A stretch of DNA of 64,000 nucleotides from an uncultured Clostridia bacterium (lineage in GTDB: Bacteria; Bacillota; Clostridia; Christensenellales; UBA1242): the NCBI GenBank assembly GCA_944349375.1, contig CALVMV010000004.1:44178-108177 (forward strand). The letters are read 5' to 3'. The position numbers and the translations under genes were made by a program. Below the pieces are notes generated by a model. That model did no database searches. It was not told the DNA's origin and was given only the letters and a program-made list of their open reading frames with translations. Positions 2,277 to 9,518 of the stretch are shown here, piece after piece (position 1 is the stretch's first letter; every line of letters begins with the position of its first letter).

Positions 2277-2927
2277 TTATCTATCTATATGGAAAATATT
2301 AAAATCTATAAATGAGCCTAAAAAGTGAGTGTATTGCAATCTTCCCGAATATCCTACTTTCATTCTAGATTTATGCTTATTAAAGTATGCTCTACATTTT
2401 TTATTCACACAAATATATCTTGGCTCTCTGGTTAATCCACACCAAGCCCATGCAATGTCCCTAAAAAGTTTTTCGTGGATTTGTTCCATATAAATAGATT
2501 TTTTCTCACAATAAGGACACTTCATATCGGTTTTTTGAAATGCCATCATCTTAAAAGCATTTACTCTGAATTTTATAGTGTCTAAAACAGAATCCTTCCC
2601 ATCAAAGTCTTCTTCACTAGTATCGGATTCTGTTTGTTCTTGCTCCTGCCCTTGATTCTCTGTGTCGTTTTCAGCTGTGCTTTGCTTTTGATCAGAGCCA
2701 TTATTATCATTGTCTCCATTAGCATAAGCACTCTGAGCACCTATATTGCCACCATATAAACTGCTTTGATCCTGACTTTCCTCGTTTATGCCATTTTCTT
2801 CTTCCGCATCTTCCCCTTGCATTCTGCTTCTAAACTTGGCTCGTAAATCTTTGTTTGCACCATCTCTTTGAGAAGTGGAAGAATTTTGATTCCTTCTTTT
2901 CTTATCATAATCTTTTGGTAATAACAT
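2277..2927 (-). CDS. Hypothetical protein with an acidic low-complexity N-terminal half and a C-terminal Cys4 zinc ribbon
   Basis: Start moved to the ATG at 2927, which follows AGAGGAAAT. CPYC...C(x4)KKC cysteine pairs are present. No family recognised. Confidence 0.5.
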   Translation of the reverse strand: MLLPKDYDKKRRNQNSSTSQRDGANKDLRAKFRSRMQGEDAEEENGINEESQDQSSLYGGNIGAQSAYANGDNDNNGSDQKQSTAENDTENQGQEQEQTESDTSEEDFDGKDSVLDTIKFRVNAFKMMAFQKTDMKCPYCEKKSIYMEQIHEKLFRDIAWAWCGLTREPRYICVNKKCRAYFNKHKSRMKVGYSGRLQYTHFLGSFIDFNIFHIDR

Positions 2928-2974
2928 ATTTCCTCTCGAGTTTATTATACACAAAAAATATTATTTTACAAAAT

Positions 2975-3415: not shown

Positions 3416-3501
3416 GCGGAAGTGGCGGAATGGCAGACGCGCAGGTTTCAGGTACCTGTGGTAGAAATACCATGTGAGTTCGACTCTCATCTCCCGCACC
3501 A
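3416..3501 (+). tRNA. tRNA-Leu (anticodon CAG), class II with long variable arm, CCA encoded
   Basis: Manual fold. The anticodon stem CAGGT/ACCTG encloses loop TTCAGGT. The long variable arm is TGGTAGAAATACCA, the T-arm is GTGAG-TTCGACT-CTCAT, and the 3' end is ACCA. There is one A-C mismatch in the acceptor stem. Confidence 0.9.
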
Positions 3502-3626: not shown

Positions 3627-3806
3627 ATGGAATATAGAGTCATAAAAATTAACGAACTTGATAAAGCAAACGAATTGTATCGCTATGTAATAAAATTTTG
3701 TAAAACTTGGGATTGGAACGAAAATTATTCAAGCTTAAAAATGATTGAGGAAGATATCGTAACTACTAAATTTTCATTCTTTATAAAACCGACAGAACCA
3801 ACATAA
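3627..3806 (+). CDS. Small hypothetical protein (59 aa), below the ORF-track cutoff
   Basis: ATG at 3627 preceded by GGGAG. Translation is MEYRVIKINELDKANELYRYVIKFCKTWDWNENYSSLKMIEEDIVTTKFSFFIKPTEPT. No family recognised. Confidence 0.3.
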   Translation: MEYRVIKINELDKANELYRYVIKFCKTWDWNENYSSLKMIEEDIVTTKFSFFIKPTEPT

Positions 3807-3968
3807 TAAACTACGACCAACTTGAAAAAGAACTAATAAAAGATCTTAAAAAACACAACAAATATTAAATCTTAACATTATTTTCTAAATAACTCATACA
3901 ATTATTATTTTACAATAACAATATAACAAAAAATAATATTTAAAAAGTTTGTATTATATATTTAACAT

Positions 3969-5546
3969 TTAAAATTTTTCAACTTCTTCATTATTTTCTA
4001 TAAAATTCTTTTTTTTTAACTCAATTTTTTTTAACCCTTCTTTATCAAGGTTATATACTTCATTACAAATTTCATTGATAAATTTTCTATCATGGGATAC
4101 GGTAATAATGACACCATTAAATTTTTTTAATACCCCTCTTATAATAGGATTAGATAATGGGCTTAAATTTCTAGTTGGCTCATCCAAAACTAAAACATTA
4201 TTTTTTTGAACTATTAATTTGGTTATTAAGATCTTAGCTTTTTGTCCTTCACTTAAATCAGATATTTTATGCTCCATTTCTTCTCTCGTAAATTTTAAGC
4301 ATCCTAACAATGTTCTAGGATTTAATTTTGAATTAGCCTCTTGTAATTCTTCAACTGGTGTTGCAGAATAATTTAAATTTTCACTATAATTTTGAGAAAA
4401 ATACCCTATTTTTAAACCACTTGTATTTTGTAAAACAGGCAAAATTGTTTTTAAAAATGTAGTTTTCCCGCAACCATTATTTCCAGTGATTGCAACTTTT
4501 TGTGGACCAAAAATTTTAAATTCTATATTTTGAGATAACTTTTTTCCACCTACTTTCAATTCTTTTATATTTACATCTATAACTTTCTTTTGATTTGGTA
4601 CTACAATATTTTTATCAACTATTAAATTAATAGCTTCCTCAACTTCAGGAATTTCCGTTAATTCTTCATCTTGTAATTTTTTTTCTTGAGCTTTTATATT
4701 TGCCATTTTTTTTGCAACTATGCGACCATTTGATGGATCCTTTTTAGATGCATTTAATGAATTTTCCACCTTTTGTTTTATTTGTCTTAATATTTCTTCT
4801 TGTTTAGCTTTCTCCCTTCTTTCGTTATAAGCTATTTGCGTTTGTTTCTCAATACCACGTCGTCGAGAGTCAATATATTCGTCATAGCTACATTTCGCTA
4901 AAGTAAACTTCGGTTTAGATTTTTTCATCAATTGTTCTATGTGTAATATTCTGTTTGCACAATTTTCAAGCAAAGTTTCATCATGAGAAATAAAAATAAT
5001 TGGCAACTCTGAACTTTTTATAAAATTTTCTAACCATTCTAAAGTATTTATATCTAAATCATTCGTAGGCTCATCTAAAAGTAAAACTGTTGGATTTTTA
5101 CATAATATTTTTACCATTTGCAATTTTACTTGCTCTCCACCAGAAAGATTTTTTATTAAAGTATTATCTTCGAGTATTTTTTTATCAAGCCCAAATTCTG
5201 TTAATTTTTTTTCTATCTTATCAAAATACTCATAGACCGCATAATCATCTTCTGAAGAGGGATTTTCTTTTAAAAAATAGTCTAAAATAGTAAACGCTCC
5301 CCAATTGTTAGATAGCTTTTGTTCCAAATATCCTAATATTTCACCTCTTGTGTCAATTGTGCCCTGCACATTACAATATGACGAAATAAGATCTTTATCA
5401 TAAATTGCCTTTAACAATGTTGACTTACCATTTCCCTCTTCTCCAATAATTGCAAGCCTATCTTCTTTATTTAATGAAAATGACAAATCTTCAATTAATT
5501 TCCTGCCCTTAATAGTTTCTATAGAAACATTTTGTAACTTTAGCAT
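3969..5546 (-). CDS. ABC-F family ATPase (two ABC cassettes, no transmembrane domain)
   Basis: Walker A GEEGNGKST and GNNGCGKTT, signatures LSGGEQ and LSEGQ, Walker B LLLDEPTNDLD and VLVLDEPTRNL. A charged K/E/Q-rich linker of about 100 aa joins the cassettes. The ATG abuts the stop of the upstream radical SAM gene (TAAATG). Confidence 0.85.
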   Translation of the reverse strand: MLKLQNVSIETIKGRKLIEDLSFSLNKEDRLAIIGEEGNGKSTLLKAIYDKDLISSYCNVQGTIDTRGEILGYLEQKLSNNWGAFTILDYFLKENPSSEDDYAVYEYFDKIEKKLTEFGLDKKILEDNTLIKNLSGGEQVKLQMVKILCKNPTVLLLDEPTNDLDINTLEWLENFIKSSELPIIFISHDETLLENCANRILHIEQLMKKSKPKFTLAKCSYDEYIDSRRRGIEKQTQIAYNERREKAKQEEILRQIKQKVENSLNASKKDPSNGRIVAKKMANIKAQEKKLQDEELTEIPEVEEAINLIVDKNIVVPNQKKVIDVNIKELKVGGKKLSQNIEFKIFGPQKVAITGNNGCGKTTFLKTILPVLQNTSGLKIGYFSQNYSENLNYSATPVEELQEANSKLNPRTLLGCLKFTREEMEHKISDLSEGQKAKILITKLIVQKNNVLVLDEPTRNLSPLSNPIIRGVLKKFNGVIITVSHDRKFINEICNEVYNLDKEGLKKIELKKKNFIENNEEVEKF

Positions 5547-6902
5547 TTACACCTCCAATTTTGATATTAATTGTTGGATTCTTTTTTTAATAATTTTTTT
5601 ACATTCATTATTTTTATAAATATTACGATCTATATTTTCAATTATATTTTTTCTAATACGAGGACACAGTCCTTGGCAATATTTTATATATTTACAAGAA
5701 AAACATTTTGAGTTATTTACATTCATTAAAGACATATTTTCAACAAAATCCAAGGTAATATCTGAATTGTCATAGGGGTCACAATTATTATTTAATCTTT
5801 CTTGAATAGTCCCAATTTTAAAATTTTCATCAAATACATTATTCCAACATCTATACAAATTGCCATTGCTATCTAAAACAATATCTTTTGTTAAACTTTC
5901 TGCTATACAAAATGTATTTAAATTTGAAACCATTAGATTTGCATTAACCAATTTTTGTTTGTAACAAATATCAAAAAGTTCTTCACGATATTTTTCATAT
6001 TCAAACAAATTAAAAGAATTTATCGAACCAAAAACTCTAGCTATATCAACAAATATGTATTGTCCAAAATATTTTTTTTCTAACAAATTTGTAATTTTTT
6101 CTAAAAATTGCTTTATACTTTGATAATTTTGTTTATCTACATTTAATCTAATTACAATTTTTATTTTATTTTCTGCACATTTATTAATATTATAAATTAT
6201 TTTATCAAATGTATTAATTTTACATTTATTTGTTCTTCGTGAATTATGGAACTCTTTTTCACCATCTATGGTAATTTGAATAAAATCACAATCTTCAAAC
6301 TGTAAATGCTTTATGAAATCTCCGTCAATTAAATAACCATTCGAAATAATATTAAAATGAAACTTTATATTCTTTTCAACGCATAAATTTTTAACTTTTT
6401 CATTAAATTTTATTATAAAATTTTTTTCTAAAGTTGGTTCTCCACCATAATAAACAATTTTTAAATCTTTAACATAATCTAAAGTAACTTTATCTATATA
6501 CTGGTATAAATATTCCGATGTTTTTATTAAATTTGAAGAACAATTTTCTTTTTTATTGAGATTTTCCCTTTCGAAACAATAAGGGCAGCAAAAGTTGCAT
6601 AAGTTTGTTATTGCAAAATCTATTTTTACACTTTCTTTTTCTGATGAGTATTTAGAAATATTATAAGTCAACTTATTTCTATTTTTTATTTCTTCATCAA
6701 AATTTGATTCAACTAAAAATTCTTGATCAATTAAAACAGCTATTTCATCTTCCGAAAATATTGCTATATCTTTGTTTTTTTTAAATAATATAATTTTTTT
6801 ATAACTTTCTAAATCTAAAACAATCAACGAACCATTATTTGTATTAAAGAGGAACTTTTTATTATTAATATTAAAAATCTCACAATAATTTGTTAATTCC
6901 AT
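5547..6902 (-). CDS. Radical SAM/SPASM-domain peptide maturase
   Basis: CNFCCPYC (CxxxCxxC) cluster plus C-terminal Cys-rich SPASM-like motifs (CFSCKYIKYCQGLCP, NECKK). Start set to the ATG at 6902 (MELTNYCEIF), which follows AGGAGTG. The longer track start at 6944 would run through a hairpin. Confidence 0.85.
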   Translation of the reverse strand: MELTNYCEIFNINNKKFLFNTNNGSLIVLDLESYKKIILFKKNKDIAIFSEDEIAVLIDQEFLVESNFDEEIKNRNKLTYNISKYSSEKESVKIDFAITNLCNFCCPYCFERENLNKKENCSSNLIKTSEYLYQYIDKVTLDYVKDLKIVYYGGEPTLEKNFIIKFNEKVKNLCVEKNIKFHFNIISNGYLIDGDFIKHLQFEDCDFIQITIDGEKEFHNSRRTNKCKINTFDKIIYNINKCAENKIKIVIRLNVDKQNYQSIKQFLEKITNLLEKKYFGQYIFVDIARVFGSINSFNLFEYEKYREELFDICYKQKLVNANLMVSNLNTFCIAESLTKDIVLDSNGNLYRCWNNVFDENFKIGTIQERLNNNCDPYDNSDITLDFVENMSLMNVNNSKCFSCKYIKYCQGLCPRIRKNIIENIDRNIYKNNECKKIIKKRIQQLISKLEV

Positions 6903-6921
6903 TTGCACTCCTATAAAATAA

Positions 6922-6946
6922 AGATGAGATAATATATATCTCATCT
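6922..6946 (-). promoter_or_regulatory. Intercistronic stem-loop between the precursor peptide and maturase genes
   Basis: Perfect 9-bp stem AGATGAGAT/ATCTCATCT with a 7-nt loop. On the transcribed strand it is followed by TTATTTTAT and then the maturase RBS. Confidence 0.4.
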
Positions 6947-6958
6947 AAATATCATGAC

Positions 6959-7051
6959 TTAACATCCACCATAATGAGAGCAAGGTCCACAAAGAAATTG
7001 TTTAGTAGATACTTCCTTCACTGATTTTTGTTTTTTTAAAACTACTTTCAT
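6959..7051 (-). CDS. Putative RiPP precursor peptide (30 aa): MKVVLKKQKSVKEVSTKQFLCGPCSHYGGC
   Basis: Not in the ORF track because it is too short. The ATG at 7051 is preceded by AGGAGGGAGAAA. A Lys-rich leader is followed by a C-terminal 10-residue core with 3 Cys. It lies directly upstream of the rSAM/SPASM gene. Confidence 0.6.
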   Translation of the reverse strand: MKVVLKKQKSVKEVSTKQFLCGPCSHYGGC

Positions 7052-7082
7052 TTTCTCCCTCCTTTATTAGAATTTTATCATA

Positions 7083-7664
7083 TTATATGTTATTTGTCAA
7101 CAAAAAAGATACAAGTTCTTTTTTTGTAATTTTTACATCCATATTTGACAAAATTAATTCTTTTAATATTTCTTTTTGGGTGACGTATAAATACTTAATA
7201 TATAACATTGCTGAATAATAGTAATCAATATTAAACTTAAAATATTTTTTTAATTTATTTAAAGGAATAATATTTATTTTGTTTGCTTTATCCTTTACTA
7301 TATTTCTTGCTAACAGTGTAGCTAATCCTTCAGATAACCATAAATCTATATTTTTATTAATATTATAAAGAATTGCATGTATTATCTCGTGATGCAATAT
7401 TTTACAAAATTCTAAATCAAAGTTTTTGAAAGAATCTTGATTTATGTATATATTGCCATCTTCCATAAACATAATCGCATAATTATTAAAATTTTCATCT
7501 AAACTCTTAATGAATTTTTTACGAGTTATTACAATTATTTTTATACTAATCTCTTTGTTAAAATTAATAATACACTTGATTTGTTTAATTGATAAATCAA
7601 GCAATTTTTTCGCTAATTCATATAACCTTTTGCTTTTATTTCCATTGACAATAATTTTATCCAT
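7083..7664 (-). CDS. Putative zinc metallopeptidase (HExxH...E gluzincin, peptidase-MA-like)
   Basis: HEIIH followed 15 residues later by the E of WLSEGLATLLA. It is the first gene of the operon, 31 nt upstream of the precursor ORF. Confidence 0.55.
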   Translation of the reverse strand: MDKIIVNGNKSKRLYELAKKLLDLSIKQIKCIINFNKEISIKIIVITRKKFIKSLDENFNNYAIMFMEDGNIYINQDSFKNFDLEFCKILHHEIIHAILYNINKNIDLWLSEGLATLLARNIVKDKANKINIIPLNKLKKYFKFNIDYYYSAMLYIKYLYVTQKEILKELILSNMDVKITKKELVSFLLTNNI

Positions 7665-7726
7665 ATTTCAGTCATTATAGCATACTTTGCTGAAATATAC
7701 AAAAATAAAAATAATAATTTATATCC

Positions 7727-7770
7727 TGGTGCACCTGAGAAGATTCGAACTTACGACAAACCCGTCTTAG
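7727..7770 (-). pseudogene. tRNA 3'-end-like fragment (T-arm, acceptor 3' strand, CCA), not a complete tRNA
   Basis: The minus strand reads ...GTAAGTTCGAATCTTCTCAGGTGCACCA. No matching 5' acceptor strand or anticodon stem could be folded from the adjoining sequence. Confidence 0.35.
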
Positions 7771-7818
7771 GCAGAAGAATTATCAAAAGCGTTCTCCCCT
7801 TATGAAAAAGTCTTTTAA

Positions 7819-8145
7819 TTAGGAGAAAAGCTCATCAAATTAAAAGATGAATATTCCAAGTCAGAATACAGCAAGGAAAAAGCTGATGAAATTAGTGATT
7901 TAGAAAAATTTATTGAACAAGAATGCTCAAAATTTGATCCCCAACTATTAATAGATGTGTCAAAATATAGAAAAGAATATTTTGTAAATAAAACAACTGA
8001 AGAGAAGTTATATAAAGATGGCGGTGTAACAATAAACATAACAAACGATATTGAAAATTCACCATATTGTCAAAGTGCCGATCTTATCAATTCTTCAGCT
8101 AATAAACTATTTTTAAAACAACTAGATGAAATTCTTTATAGTTAA
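7819..8145 (+). pseudogene. Open frame of 108 codons without an ATG/GTG/TTG until 7957; possible 5'-truncated gene remnant
   Basis: The frame is open from the TAA at 7816-7818 (LGEKLIKLKDEYSKSEYSKEKADE...). The only start candidate is the GTG at 7957. No family recognised. Confidence 0.3.
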
Positions 8146-8162
8146 ATATTAAAATTGATAAA

Positions 8163-8186
8163 AAAACGCGTTTGTTGACGCGTTTT
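8163..8186. terminator. Bidirectional intrinsic terminator
   Basis: AAAACGCGT (8163-8171) pairs with ACGCGTTTT (8178-8186) around a 6-nt loop. It lies immediately downstream of tilS and of the + strand frame. Confidence 0.6.
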
Positions 8187-9518
8187 TTATTTTTTTACTT
8201 CAATCATGTATGCTGTTGGCACATTATCAACTCTTGCTTTTTCAGAAATTTCAACTCCTGCTATCGCATACACTTCATTTCCATCTGCTAAAACTGGTAA
8301 GAGATTTCTTTGTCTAAGTGGTATTTTTTTGTCTATTAAATATGATTTAAGTTTCTTTGTTCCACCACCAAACTTTTCAAAAACATCTCCATCTTTTCTA
8401 AATCTCCAAATTGCTGTTTTAGGAACTTTTCTATAATCTAAGAATAGCACTCCATCTTTAGGTTCAAAATCTTTAACTCTTTTTGTTATAACTTTCCCAA
8501 ATCCCTCGACATCAAATTCGCCACACTTAAAAGGCTCGTTCAAAACCATTTCTTCTTTATTTTTGTTAGTAATAGAAATATAGTAGTACTCTTTAACTGC
8601 TGTAGCATTAAATGGCAAGGATACTTTTTTCCCATTCTCTAAGTTTTGTGCTAGATCCAAAATCATGTCAAAATGCTTTCTTTCAATATCCTTTGTTATA
8701 CCAATAGATTTGAATGCTTTAAAAAGTATTCTTGTTATAATTGGTCTATCATACAAAAAGTAACTTGTTGGTATTTTTACTTCATCGCCTTCAATTATAA
8801 TTGCATCATCATAAATGTTTTTGTTGATATATTCATCATCTTCACTTACAGCTTGCCCAAAAGATGCTATTGACTTTATAGCATTTGGCCACCTAGTCAA
8901 AACATTTTTCATAATAACATTTCTAACAAAATTTCGGTTATAAGTTATATCGACATTAGTTTCATCTTCTCTATAATCAAGGTTGTTTTCATCAAGATAT
9001 TGCAAAATTTCTTCTTTTGATGTTGTTAGCATAGGCCTTATGTAAACATTATCTCTTATAGGTTCCATTCCTTTTGCCCCTGCGACACCACTACCTCTAA
9101 AAATATGCATTAATATTGTTTCTGCCTGATCTTGCATATGATGAGCAAGTGCAATTTTGTCAACAACTCCCTTTTTTAATAATGTTTTGAACACGCCATA
9201 TCTGGCATCTCTTGCAGCAGTTTCAATACTTACATTTTTTTCTTTAGCTATTTTAGGTGCATCAACTCTAAACTTATAGAACCTAATCCCAAGTTCTTTT
9301 GCTTTTTCTTTTGCAAAATCAGCATCTATATAACTATTTTCTCTAATGCCATGGTCGATATGAATTGCAACAACTTCAATATCAAGTTTTTGCATATTAT
9401 TTGCTAAATAGTGTAAAAGAGCCATAGAATCACTACCACCGCTAAATCCTACGCCTATAACATCTCCTGCCGAAATCATATTTGTTTTTTGTATAAATTT
9501 TTCAATACTTTCAAGCAT
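8187..9518 (-). CDS. tilS: tRNA(Ile)-lysidine synthetase
   Basis: PP-loop motif SGGSDSMALL near the N-terminus. The 443-aa length and TilS-type C-terminal domain fit. Confidence 0.9.
   Translation of the reverse strand: MLESIEKFIQKTNMISAGDVIGVGFSGGSDSMALLHYLANNMQKLDIEVVAIHIDHGIRENSYIDADFAKEKAKELGIRFYKFRVDAPKIAKEKNVSIETAARDARYGVFKTLLKKGVVDKIALAHHMQDQAETILMHIFRGSGVAGAKGMEPIRDNVYIRPMLTTSKEEILQYLDENNLDYREDETNVDITYNRNFVRNVIMKNVLTRWPNAIKSIASFGQAVSEDDEYINKNIYDDAIIIEGDEVKIPTSYFLYDRPIITRILFKAFKSIGITKDIERKHFDMILDLAQNLENGKKVSLPFNATAVKEYYYISITNKNKEEMVLNEPFKCGEFDVEGFGKVITKRVKDFEPKDGVLFLDYRKVPKTAIWRFRKDGDVFEKFGGGTKKLKSYLIDKKIPLRQRNLLPVLADGNEVYAIAGVEISEKARVDNVPTAYMIEVKK

Follow-up and report, generated by a model that had tools for sequence, protein, structure and literature searches.

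What does a 30-codon open reading frame (ORF) encode when it stands directly in front of a gene for a radical S-adenosylmethionine (SAM) enzyme? We addressed this question for such an ORF on the minus strand, at positions 6959..7051 of a 64,000-nucleotide (nt) stretch of contig CALVMV010000004.1 from an uncultured Clostridia bacterium; this whole stretch is referred to here as the window. An earlier reading of the same DNA (the original prediction) had taken the ORF for an unannotated precursor-peptide gene, and this interpretation is supported by the comparative sequence analysis reported here. We consider it highly probable that the ORF encodes the precursor of a peptide that is made on ribosomes and modified after translation (RiPP), which would be matured by the adjacent radical-SAM/SPASM enzyme.

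The ORF begins with an ATG at 7051-7049, ends with a TAA at 6961-6959 and encodes MKVVLKKQKSVKEVSTKQFLCGPCSHYGGC, in agreement with the coordinates and translation first proposed, and it is the only peptide gene of its kind in the window. The ideally spaced ribosome-binding site that had been reported is also in place: within AGGAGGGAGAAA (7052..7063, minus strand), an AGGAGG at 7063-7058 is separated from the ATG by 6 nt, and GGAGG-type sites likewise precede the peptide ORFs of relatives. The translation falls into two parts, MKVVLKKQKSVKEVSTKQFL followed by CGPCSHYGGC. Codons 1-20 (6992..7051, minus strand) form a leader with an N-terminal MKVVL, a variable spacer and a clade-specific STKQFL, while codons 21-30 (6962..6991) form a core that contains a thioredoxin-like CGPC and, as had been stated, all three cysteines of the peptide within the final 10 residues. 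The radical-SAM/SPASM neighbour had also been placed correctly, being the next gene on the minus strand, with its start at 6902.

Selection on the peptide ORF and its tie to the enzyme

The original prediction had named a conserved small ORF upstream of orthologous maturases as its test, and when this was run the ORF was present at every intact orthologous enzyme examined. In the genome collection, all five orthologous loci have an ORF of 30-32 codons immediately before the enzyme gene, and its product contains the core STKQ[FY]LCGPC[SA]H[YL]GGC. Altogether 23 distinct versions of the peptide were recovered from about 27 loci, all just upstream of an enzyme homologue save for one contig that ends early and one variant contig. 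These loci belong to two enzyme clades, and the window lies in clade A. The intact clade-A loci, which all carry the peptide ORF, are the window, L001-L005, L041, L071, L075, L076 and L074, the last in a variant form. The clade-B loci with a peptide upstream of the enzyme are L009, L010, L012, L047, L020/L049, L037, L050, L066, L077-L079, L081 and L082, and isolate genomes are included in this clade.

Nine clade-A sequences were compared by codon position, over a conserved stretch of 16 codons and over the 12 codons preceding it. In the conserved stretch, differences at positions 1, 2 and 3 numbered 42, 42 and 285, the mean nonsynonymous divergence (dN) was 0.076 with synonymous divergence (dS) saturated, and each codon was seen in at least two synonymous forms; in the 12 preceding codons, the corresponding counts were 226, 145 and 241. 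The 42/42/285 pattern, taken with the synonymous variety, indicates that the frame is read as a protein and that its C-terminal part is under strong purifying selection. On these alignments, the 30-codon ORF is a real gene that is selected as a protein. The genome has 28.5% G+C, a composition at which short ORFs and promoter-like matches abound, and an ORF of only 30 codons could instead be a chance open frame in AT-rich intergenic DNA, but the 23 distinct homologues, whose divergence lies mostly at third positions, refute this explanation, and we assign it a negligible probability.

The association was also examined in reverse, by scanning metagenome contigs with a degenerate DNA pattern back-translated from CGPCxHxGGC. 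This motif-only scan returned 63 loci, of which 51 were high-GC matches that are not peptide-like and 12 were low-GC small ORFs starting with MK(V/I/L). An enzyme homologue was found at exactly 10 of the 63 loci, all among the 12 with a small ORF, and at none of the 51 chance matches; if only loci with enough flanking DNA are counted, the enzyme adjoins 10 of 11 real motif matches. At one locus that lacks the enzyme, L036, the contig ends 56 nt past the peptide gene. The other, L021 (1-930), is identical to L037 (6000-7600) through the peptide gene and the hairpin described below; the two contigs part about 25 nt ahead of the enzyme start, and L021 has no enzyme, HExxH or exporter gene in that place, owing either to a deletion at strain level or to a join made in assembly. 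A single pattern match on a viral contig of 57% G+C was set aside as a chance match outside the family.

Loss of the two genes follows the same pattern as their presence. L073 (4001-7255) comes from a close relative in which the enzyme segments are still about 84-90% identical. Here an unrelated upstream ORF stands in place of the peptide gene and of the enzyme start; the rest of the enzyme gene is fused, with its frame interrupted after YGGEPTLEKN, and the ABC-F gene that follows is intact. This locus looks like a decaying cassette from which peptide and enzyme were lost together. The peptide thus co-occurs with the enzyme clade and is co-lost with it.

Signals in the immediate DNA suggest how the peptide gene may be expressed. 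A sigma-70-like promoter match, TTGACA-17-TAAAAT with a TG before the second hexamer, lies at 7072..7100 on the minus strand, where it overlaps the 3' end of the gene for an HExxH protein; it is the top match on that strand within 3800-8200 (11 of 12 positions plus the TG extension), and its putative function is read from this consensus match. A terminator-like site at 6922..6946 (minus strand), consisting of a hairpin with a 10-bp stem and a 5-nt loop and a T-rich run, starts 13 nt past the peptide stop and is placed between this stop and the ribosome-binding site of the enzyme. The 56-nt spacer between peptide and enzyme has a minimum free energy of -14.7 kcal/mol (z = -2.9 versus shuffles), and 13 of 18 related loci have a strong hairpin of another sequence in this position. 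We propose that the hairpin may serve as a partial terminator or a transcript stabiliser.

A terminator-like hairpin this close to the stop, with an ABC-F gene downstream, also recalls the attenuation of antibiotic-resistance ABC-F genes, and the ORF could then be a regulatory leader peptide, functionless in itself, on which the behaviour of the ribosome controls the hairpin and read-through to the enzyme and the ABC-F. Selection, however, acts on the amino acids of the Cys-rich C-terminal motif and not on an RNA or stalling motif, and clade B, which has no ABC-F, conserves the peptide as well. The peptide, moreover, always accompanies an enzyme with a predicted peptide-binding domain, and L073 lost the two together but kept its ABC-F. 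We therefore regard a purely regulatory role as extremely improbable.

The peptide family and its radical-SAM/SPASM enzyme

An N-terminal motif, M-K-(V/I/L)-(V/I/L)-(L/I/V), is common to the 23 peptides. The leader measures 19-22 residues (mode 20) in the 21 peptides that were tabulated and is otherwise variable in sequence, whereas the core is a stretch of 10 residues of the form C-G-P-C-x-(H-[YL] or [NK]-H)-x-x-C. The CGPC and the third Cys are invariant in 23 of 23 peptides, a His stands at core position 6 or 7, and the core is followed by a tail of 0-9 residues (at most 6 in the tabulated peptides, 9 in L081). The Lys-rich character noted originally holds for the window peptide but is not a trait of the family, as the leaders of relatives are acidic or neutral. 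Similarly, the proposal of a recognition leader stands to the extent that a leader of about 20 residues is kept across the family, but its conserved features are MK(V/I/L)3 and its length, not lysine.

Variant cores in which the His is shifted by one position are CGPCSKHNGC (L074, about 2470-2572) and CGPCSNHGGC (L079, about 4820-4930). The L074 peptide has CTG, not ATG, at the expected start position, and from its sequence this copy may be decaying or using a rare start. Eight peptides of the family, compared with NCBIfam and Pfam, gave no match even at E = 10.

Clade B was first met through the motif scan, and its enzymes are 32-41% identical to that of the window. A profile search with four of them returned about 22 further clusters, and source names in the clade-B clusters include Bulleidia sp. 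zg-1006, Tepiditoga spiralis, Athalassotoga, Thermoanaerobacter and Anoxybacter. The peptide again lies upstream of the enzyme in Bulleidia, Tepiditoga and three more loci, and no gene is called at its position on three NCBI records (Bulleidia, Tepiditoga and L079). The core is kept across Bacillota and Thermotogota.

Two further loci are worth recording. The clade-B cassette of L082 (1124-4338 and 9780-11162), with the peptide MTVIISLDETRVNCEDCGGGGGGCGPCSHLGPCK, lies beside a relaxase gene and an agr-like module composed of AgrB, a histidine kinase and a LytTR response regulator, surroundings that hint at quorum-sensing control and mobility. At L006 (about 5700-5890), in a Prevotellaceae metagenome-assembled genome, a different Cys-rich small ORF, MTDKKKFEKPQMEIIKLNSKLGVLAGSCDGYCACYSPDLVGG, precedes a SPASM enzyme from outside the family (29% identical); this ORF probably encodes a further precursor that annotation has missed and that belongs to a separate family.

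CGPC is the active-site motif of thioredoxin, and the peptide might accordingly work unmodified, as a small redox or metal-binding peptide, with the enzyme a mere neighbour or acting elsewhere. The core indeed contains the CGPC dithiol, CxxCxHxxxC offers four potential metal ligands (Cys3-His), the core is far more conserved than the leader, and clade A has no linked exporter. A leader that keeps its length and its N-terminal strand while its sequence varies is nevertheless the anatomy of an enzyme substrate, and adjacency to the enzyme clade is strict across phyla. Clade B also has exporters and, in places, a peptidase, and the peptide is lost together with the enzyme. We find an unmodified peptide very improbable, and retain the reading of a precursor that is modified by its neighbour.

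This neighbour is encoded at 5547..6902 on the minus strand and is identified by PF04055, TIGR04085 and a structure model as a radical-SAM/SPASM peptide maturase of 451 residues with an RRE-like N-terminal domain. The start at 6944 given in the ORF list was rejected in favour of the ATG at 6902 (MELTNYC...), which has its own GGAG and agrees with the length of the database homologue P0001 (451 residues, 98% identical to the window enzyme at 100% coverage). The scores are 52.8 bits for PF04055 (cut-off 29.5) and 44.6 bits for the SPASM model TIGR04085 (cut-off 27). Among 21 orthologues, C102 and C109 of the CxxxCxxC motif are invariant and C106 is kept in at least 90%. The seven-Cys pattern tested for two auxiliary clusters, Cx9-15Gx4C ... 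Cx2Cx5Cx3C ... C, is invariant in the same orthologues (C332, C352, C400, C403, C409, C413 and C434, together with G347).

The AlphaFold model, calculated from the orthologue alignment, has a predicted local distance difference test (pLDDT) score of 88.7. Its residues 7-85 form three strands and three helices (beta3-alpha3) with pLDDT >90, and we take them as a predicted RRE-like peptide-recognition domain. Over the full length, the best structural match is the thioether synthase CteB (5wgg; E 5e-14, template modelling (TM) score 0.65, 20% identical), followed by anSME, SuiB and SkfB; CteB and SuiB both bear an RRE. In sequence, the closest entries with a solved structure are TigE (8VPO), which is a cyclopropylglycine synthase (PMC10878394), and then CteB and anSME.

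The homologue search with the enzyme returned about 22 clusters at 45-98% identity, with the next drop to 28%. BLAST scores with the window enzyme form tiers, with 368-860 bits for clade A, 238-319 bits for full-length clade-B enzymes (176 bits for P0215, a shortened clade-B enzyme of 299 residues) and at most 160 bits for every other SPASM enzyme recovered. Because these tiers are discrete, the peptide motif and the enzyme clade define one family. No NCBIfam equivalog cut-off was reached by either clade. The window enzyme scores 140.2 bits with TIGR04334, 165.2 with TIGR04463, 160.8 with NF038107 and 151.6 with NF052473, and the four clade-B enzymes score 129-172 bits with these models, all below cut-offs of 500-600; similarly, the PapB-family ranthipeptide maturase model NF047865 gave 88.6 bits against a cut-off of 340.

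The ABC-F gene and other neighbours

The gene that follows the enzyme (3969..5546, minus strand) encodes an ABC-F ATPase of 525 residues, recognized by its domain architecture, with two nucleotide-binding domains and no membrane domain. Its ATG comes directly after the TAA of the enzyme, and its GGAGG lies within the last enzyme codons. Nine other loci show an abutting or overlapping junction of the two genes, and the flanking genes vary, with SpoIIE on the upstream side in the window and on the downstream side in L001 and L005. An ABC-F gene follows the enzyme in 10 of 11 clade-A loci (L074 has none there), and it occupies the slot that is held by ABC exporters in clade B. The protein scores 315 bits with NF000355, a model for ribosomal-protection-like ABC-F proteins (cut-off 380), and the nearest solved ABC-F structures, all ribosome-bound, are VmlR2/ExpZ, Lmo0919, Sal(B) and VgaA.

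The ABC-F family comprises about 50 clusters at >=54% identity, among them stand-alone orthologues with no peptide or enzyme gene nearby at L070 (70% identical) and L072 (63%). At L070 (2595-5551), the gene is found behind a terminator, directly after rpsF-ssb-rpsR-rpmE, a setting that suits a housekeeping, translation-related role, and the L072 copy lies beside another ABC-F gene. Since these unlinked orthologues (63-70%) are as close to the window protein as the linked ones (57-66%), the linked copies do not constitute a separate lineage. We had considered the ABC-F as a dedicated, cassette-specific gene, an idea that is weakened by the stand-alone orthologues and by its survival past the decay of the L073 cassette. 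Its membership in the system is uncertain, because orthologues exist without the cassette. Its distribution suggests a lineage-resident gene that may have become dependent on the cassette, or at least co-expressed with it, and a functional link is possible.

Such a link would extend the RiPP reading by making the ABC-F a working part of the system: the mature peptide would act on the ribosome, and the ABC-F would protect or sense the ribosomes of the producer, a role that ABC-F genes have in clusters for ribosome-targeting small-molecule antibiotics. The constancy of the junction despite differing flanks, the position in the exporter slot and the resemblance to ribosomal-protection ABC-Fs (315 bits with NF000355, ribosome-bound nearest structures) are all in line with this proposal. 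An ABC-F within an antibiotic cluster also has a precedent in LmrC of the lincomycin cluster (PMC8546547). In such clusters, as in the cassette, an ABC-F similar to ribosomal-protection proteins is co-transcribed with biosynthetic genes. The known clusters, in contrast, make ribosome-targeting small-molecule antibiotics, and the window-type ABC-F also exists without a cassette, in orthologues that are as similar as the linked copies. The ABC-F is also intact at L073 past cassette decay, the L074 enzyme is not followed by one, and the score lies below the cut-off of NF000355. We thus consider a working role for the ABC-F unlikely. The more specific idea that, in the window clade, matured CGPCSHYGGC acts in the cell or on ribosomes, with the ABC-F as its dedicated immunity factor or ribosome-based sensor, appears slightly less likely still; if true, it would be the first RiPP system paired with an ABC-F and would provide a new peptide ligand of the ribosome.

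Upstream of the peptide gene, at 7083..7664 on the minus strand, a small HExxH protein of 193 residues (HEIIH at 92-96, Glu112) is a candidate leader peptidase. At L003 and L075 a homologue precedes the peptide gene, and at L020/L049 and L037 one lies between the enzyme and the exporter, so that an HExxH gene adjoins the cassette in both clades. Residues H92, E93, H96, W109, E112, G113 and A115 are invariant in five HExxH homologues. MA-clan (gluzincin) zinc metallopeptidases combine HExxH with a downstream Glu that acts as third zinc ligand, a place that E112 may take here. Weak, sub-threshold matches were obtained to Peptidase_M1, Peptidase_MA_2 and DUF2268, and a weak match is confined to the zinc-site region of M1 aminopeptidases (E about 0.006); the single-sequence structure model, with a pLDDT of 38, was too low to use. 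Where the sequence of a clade-B locus extends far enough downstream, the enzyme gene is succeeded by permease/ATPase-type ABC exporters, which come next to it or after an intervening HExxH gene.

The surrounding window includes several other features. Between a bidirectional terminator (8161-8188) and the HExxH gene, a 46-nt stretch at 7727-7772 (minus strand), ending ...GTTCGAATCTTCTCAGGTGCACCA, resembles the 3' half of a tRNA, with a T-loop and a CCA end, and may be a decayed tRNA or an integration scar. ARAGORN and Rfam gave no tRNA call for this stretch, which shares no repeat with tRNA-Leu(CAG) at 3416-3501; a genomic island with these two sites as attachment-site repeats was discarded, as they lie on opposite strands and have no common repeat. 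An ORF of 74 residues at 7815-8039 (minus strand), of implausible composition and with no family match, is overlapped by a plus-strand frame at 7957-8145 that resembles the 3' part of a gene and has no start codon upstream of a GTG at 7957; the region, situated between tilS and the cassette, may be what remains of a gene. Lastly, an ORF of 225 residues at 2277-2954 (minus strand) has a long, acidic, low-complexity N-terminal half and C-terminal CPYC...C motifs like those of a zinc ribbon, and gave no match in NCBIfam or Pfam.

Proposed pathway and comparison with known systems

The pathway that we propose would start from the promoter of the peptide gene and its strong ribosome-binding site, which would drive synthesis of the 30-residue peptide. 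The hairpin would let part of the transcripts reach the enzyme gene, or stabilise a short transcript, yielding much substrate and little enzyme. The RRE-like domain of the enzyme would bind the extreme N-terminus of the peptide (MK and three aliphatic residues), and the leader of about 20 residues, variable in sequence, would place the core CGPCSHYGGC in the active site. There, the enzyme would cleave SAM reductively, abstract a hydrogen from a core carbon and join this carbon to a Cys sulfur, giving a product with thioether rings, one to three in number, like those of sactipeptides or ranthipeptides. Conservation across both clades does not extend beyond the core, and the bond acceptors must therefore be part of it. 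The putative HExxH zinc peptidase could then remove the leader, and the product so released would be constrained and measure about 1 kDa. Its secretion would fall to a dedicated ABC exporter in distant relatives; the window clade has no linked exporter, and the lineage-resident ABC-F would be co-transcribed and translationally coupled instead.

We see the chances of thioether formation as about even, arguing from the three invariant Cys and from CteB as the closest structure; the alternative is another cross-link, or the use of the CGPC/His set in metal or redox chemistry. Several observations weigh against the pathway as a whole. We infer its chemistry only from the enzyme class and from the nearest solved relative, which is 20% identical, and the top sequence match in the PDB, TigE, makes cyclopropylglycine, not thioethers. 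Since no curated maturase family reaches its cut-off, function is not transferred by orthology, and on contig L021 the peptide gene is kept while the enzyme is absent. As most loci have no HExxH gene beside the cassette, the leader may be removed by a different protease. A secreted product is not assured, because clade A has no linked exporter, and is favoured by the exporters that clade B carries.

Among characterized systems, the thermocellin pair CteB/CteA of Clostridium thermocellum (PDB 5WGG) has in common with the window cassette an enzyme composed of an RRE, a radical-SAM core and a SPASM domain with two auxiliary clusters, and likewise a Cys-containing peptide encoded beside the maturase. 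The precursors, however, are unrelated in sequence, the window core is a fixed 10-mer with three Cys, and its chemistry is a prediction. The SCIFF/ScfB system (TIGR03974; 'six cysteines in forty-five'), which is widespread in Clostridia, is similar in that a short Cys-rich peptide with a conserved C-terminal region is found beside a radical-SAM/SPASM enzyme in Clostridia, and in that the window-clade cassette lies among housekeeping genes with no linked exporter. It differs in that the window enzyme scores 53.5 bits with TIGR03974 (cut-off 425), the window peptide contains 3 Cys over a length of 30 residues, compared with 6 over about 45 for SCIFF, and the distant relatives of the window family do have exporters.

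In the cofactor-type systems PqqA/PqqE and MftA/MftC, the precursor is very short, its C-terminal core is invariant and its remaining sequence poorly conserved, and the maturase has RRE function. The window family resembles them in its very short precursor with an invariant core and, in clade A, in having no linked exporter. Unlike these systems, it has no linked downstream redox enzymes or cofactor-dependent dehydrogenases, and clade B has exporters. The best-scoring curated models for the enzymes of both clades, at 136-172 bits, are the bioinformatically defined NCBIfam families TIGR04463, CefB (NF038107), FlmE/OhkG (NF052473) and Clo7bot (TIGR04334), which align over the full length, including the N-terminal domain.

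A literature search, which did not cover all journals, returned nothing on the peptide motif, on CGPC with radical SAM or on an ABC-F in a RiPP cluster, and no paper on the TIGR04463, CefB, FlmE/OhkG or Clo7bot families. We therefore describe a new family within radical-SAM/SPASM-modified peptides, for which we found no description in the curated family libraries or the searchable literature, and which may, by analogy, function in the manner of the sactipeptide/ranthipeptide and SCIFF systems. Annotation often misses the precursor gene, also in the isolate genomes examined. The family should be easily testable, with its 10-residue core, a single maturase and the cultured carriers Bulleidia sp. 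zg-1006 and Tepiditoga spiralis. In the window clade, the combination of an unusually short, invariant core with an unusual ABC-F partner should be of interest to specialists in natural products and radical-SAM enzymes, and in gut and rumen Clostridia, where a translationally coupled ABC-F has taken the place of the exporter, this exchange would offer a testable link between a RiPP and the ribosome. For the family as a whole, the tight conservation of the core across Bacillota and Thermotogota suggests a specific target or a specific chemistry.

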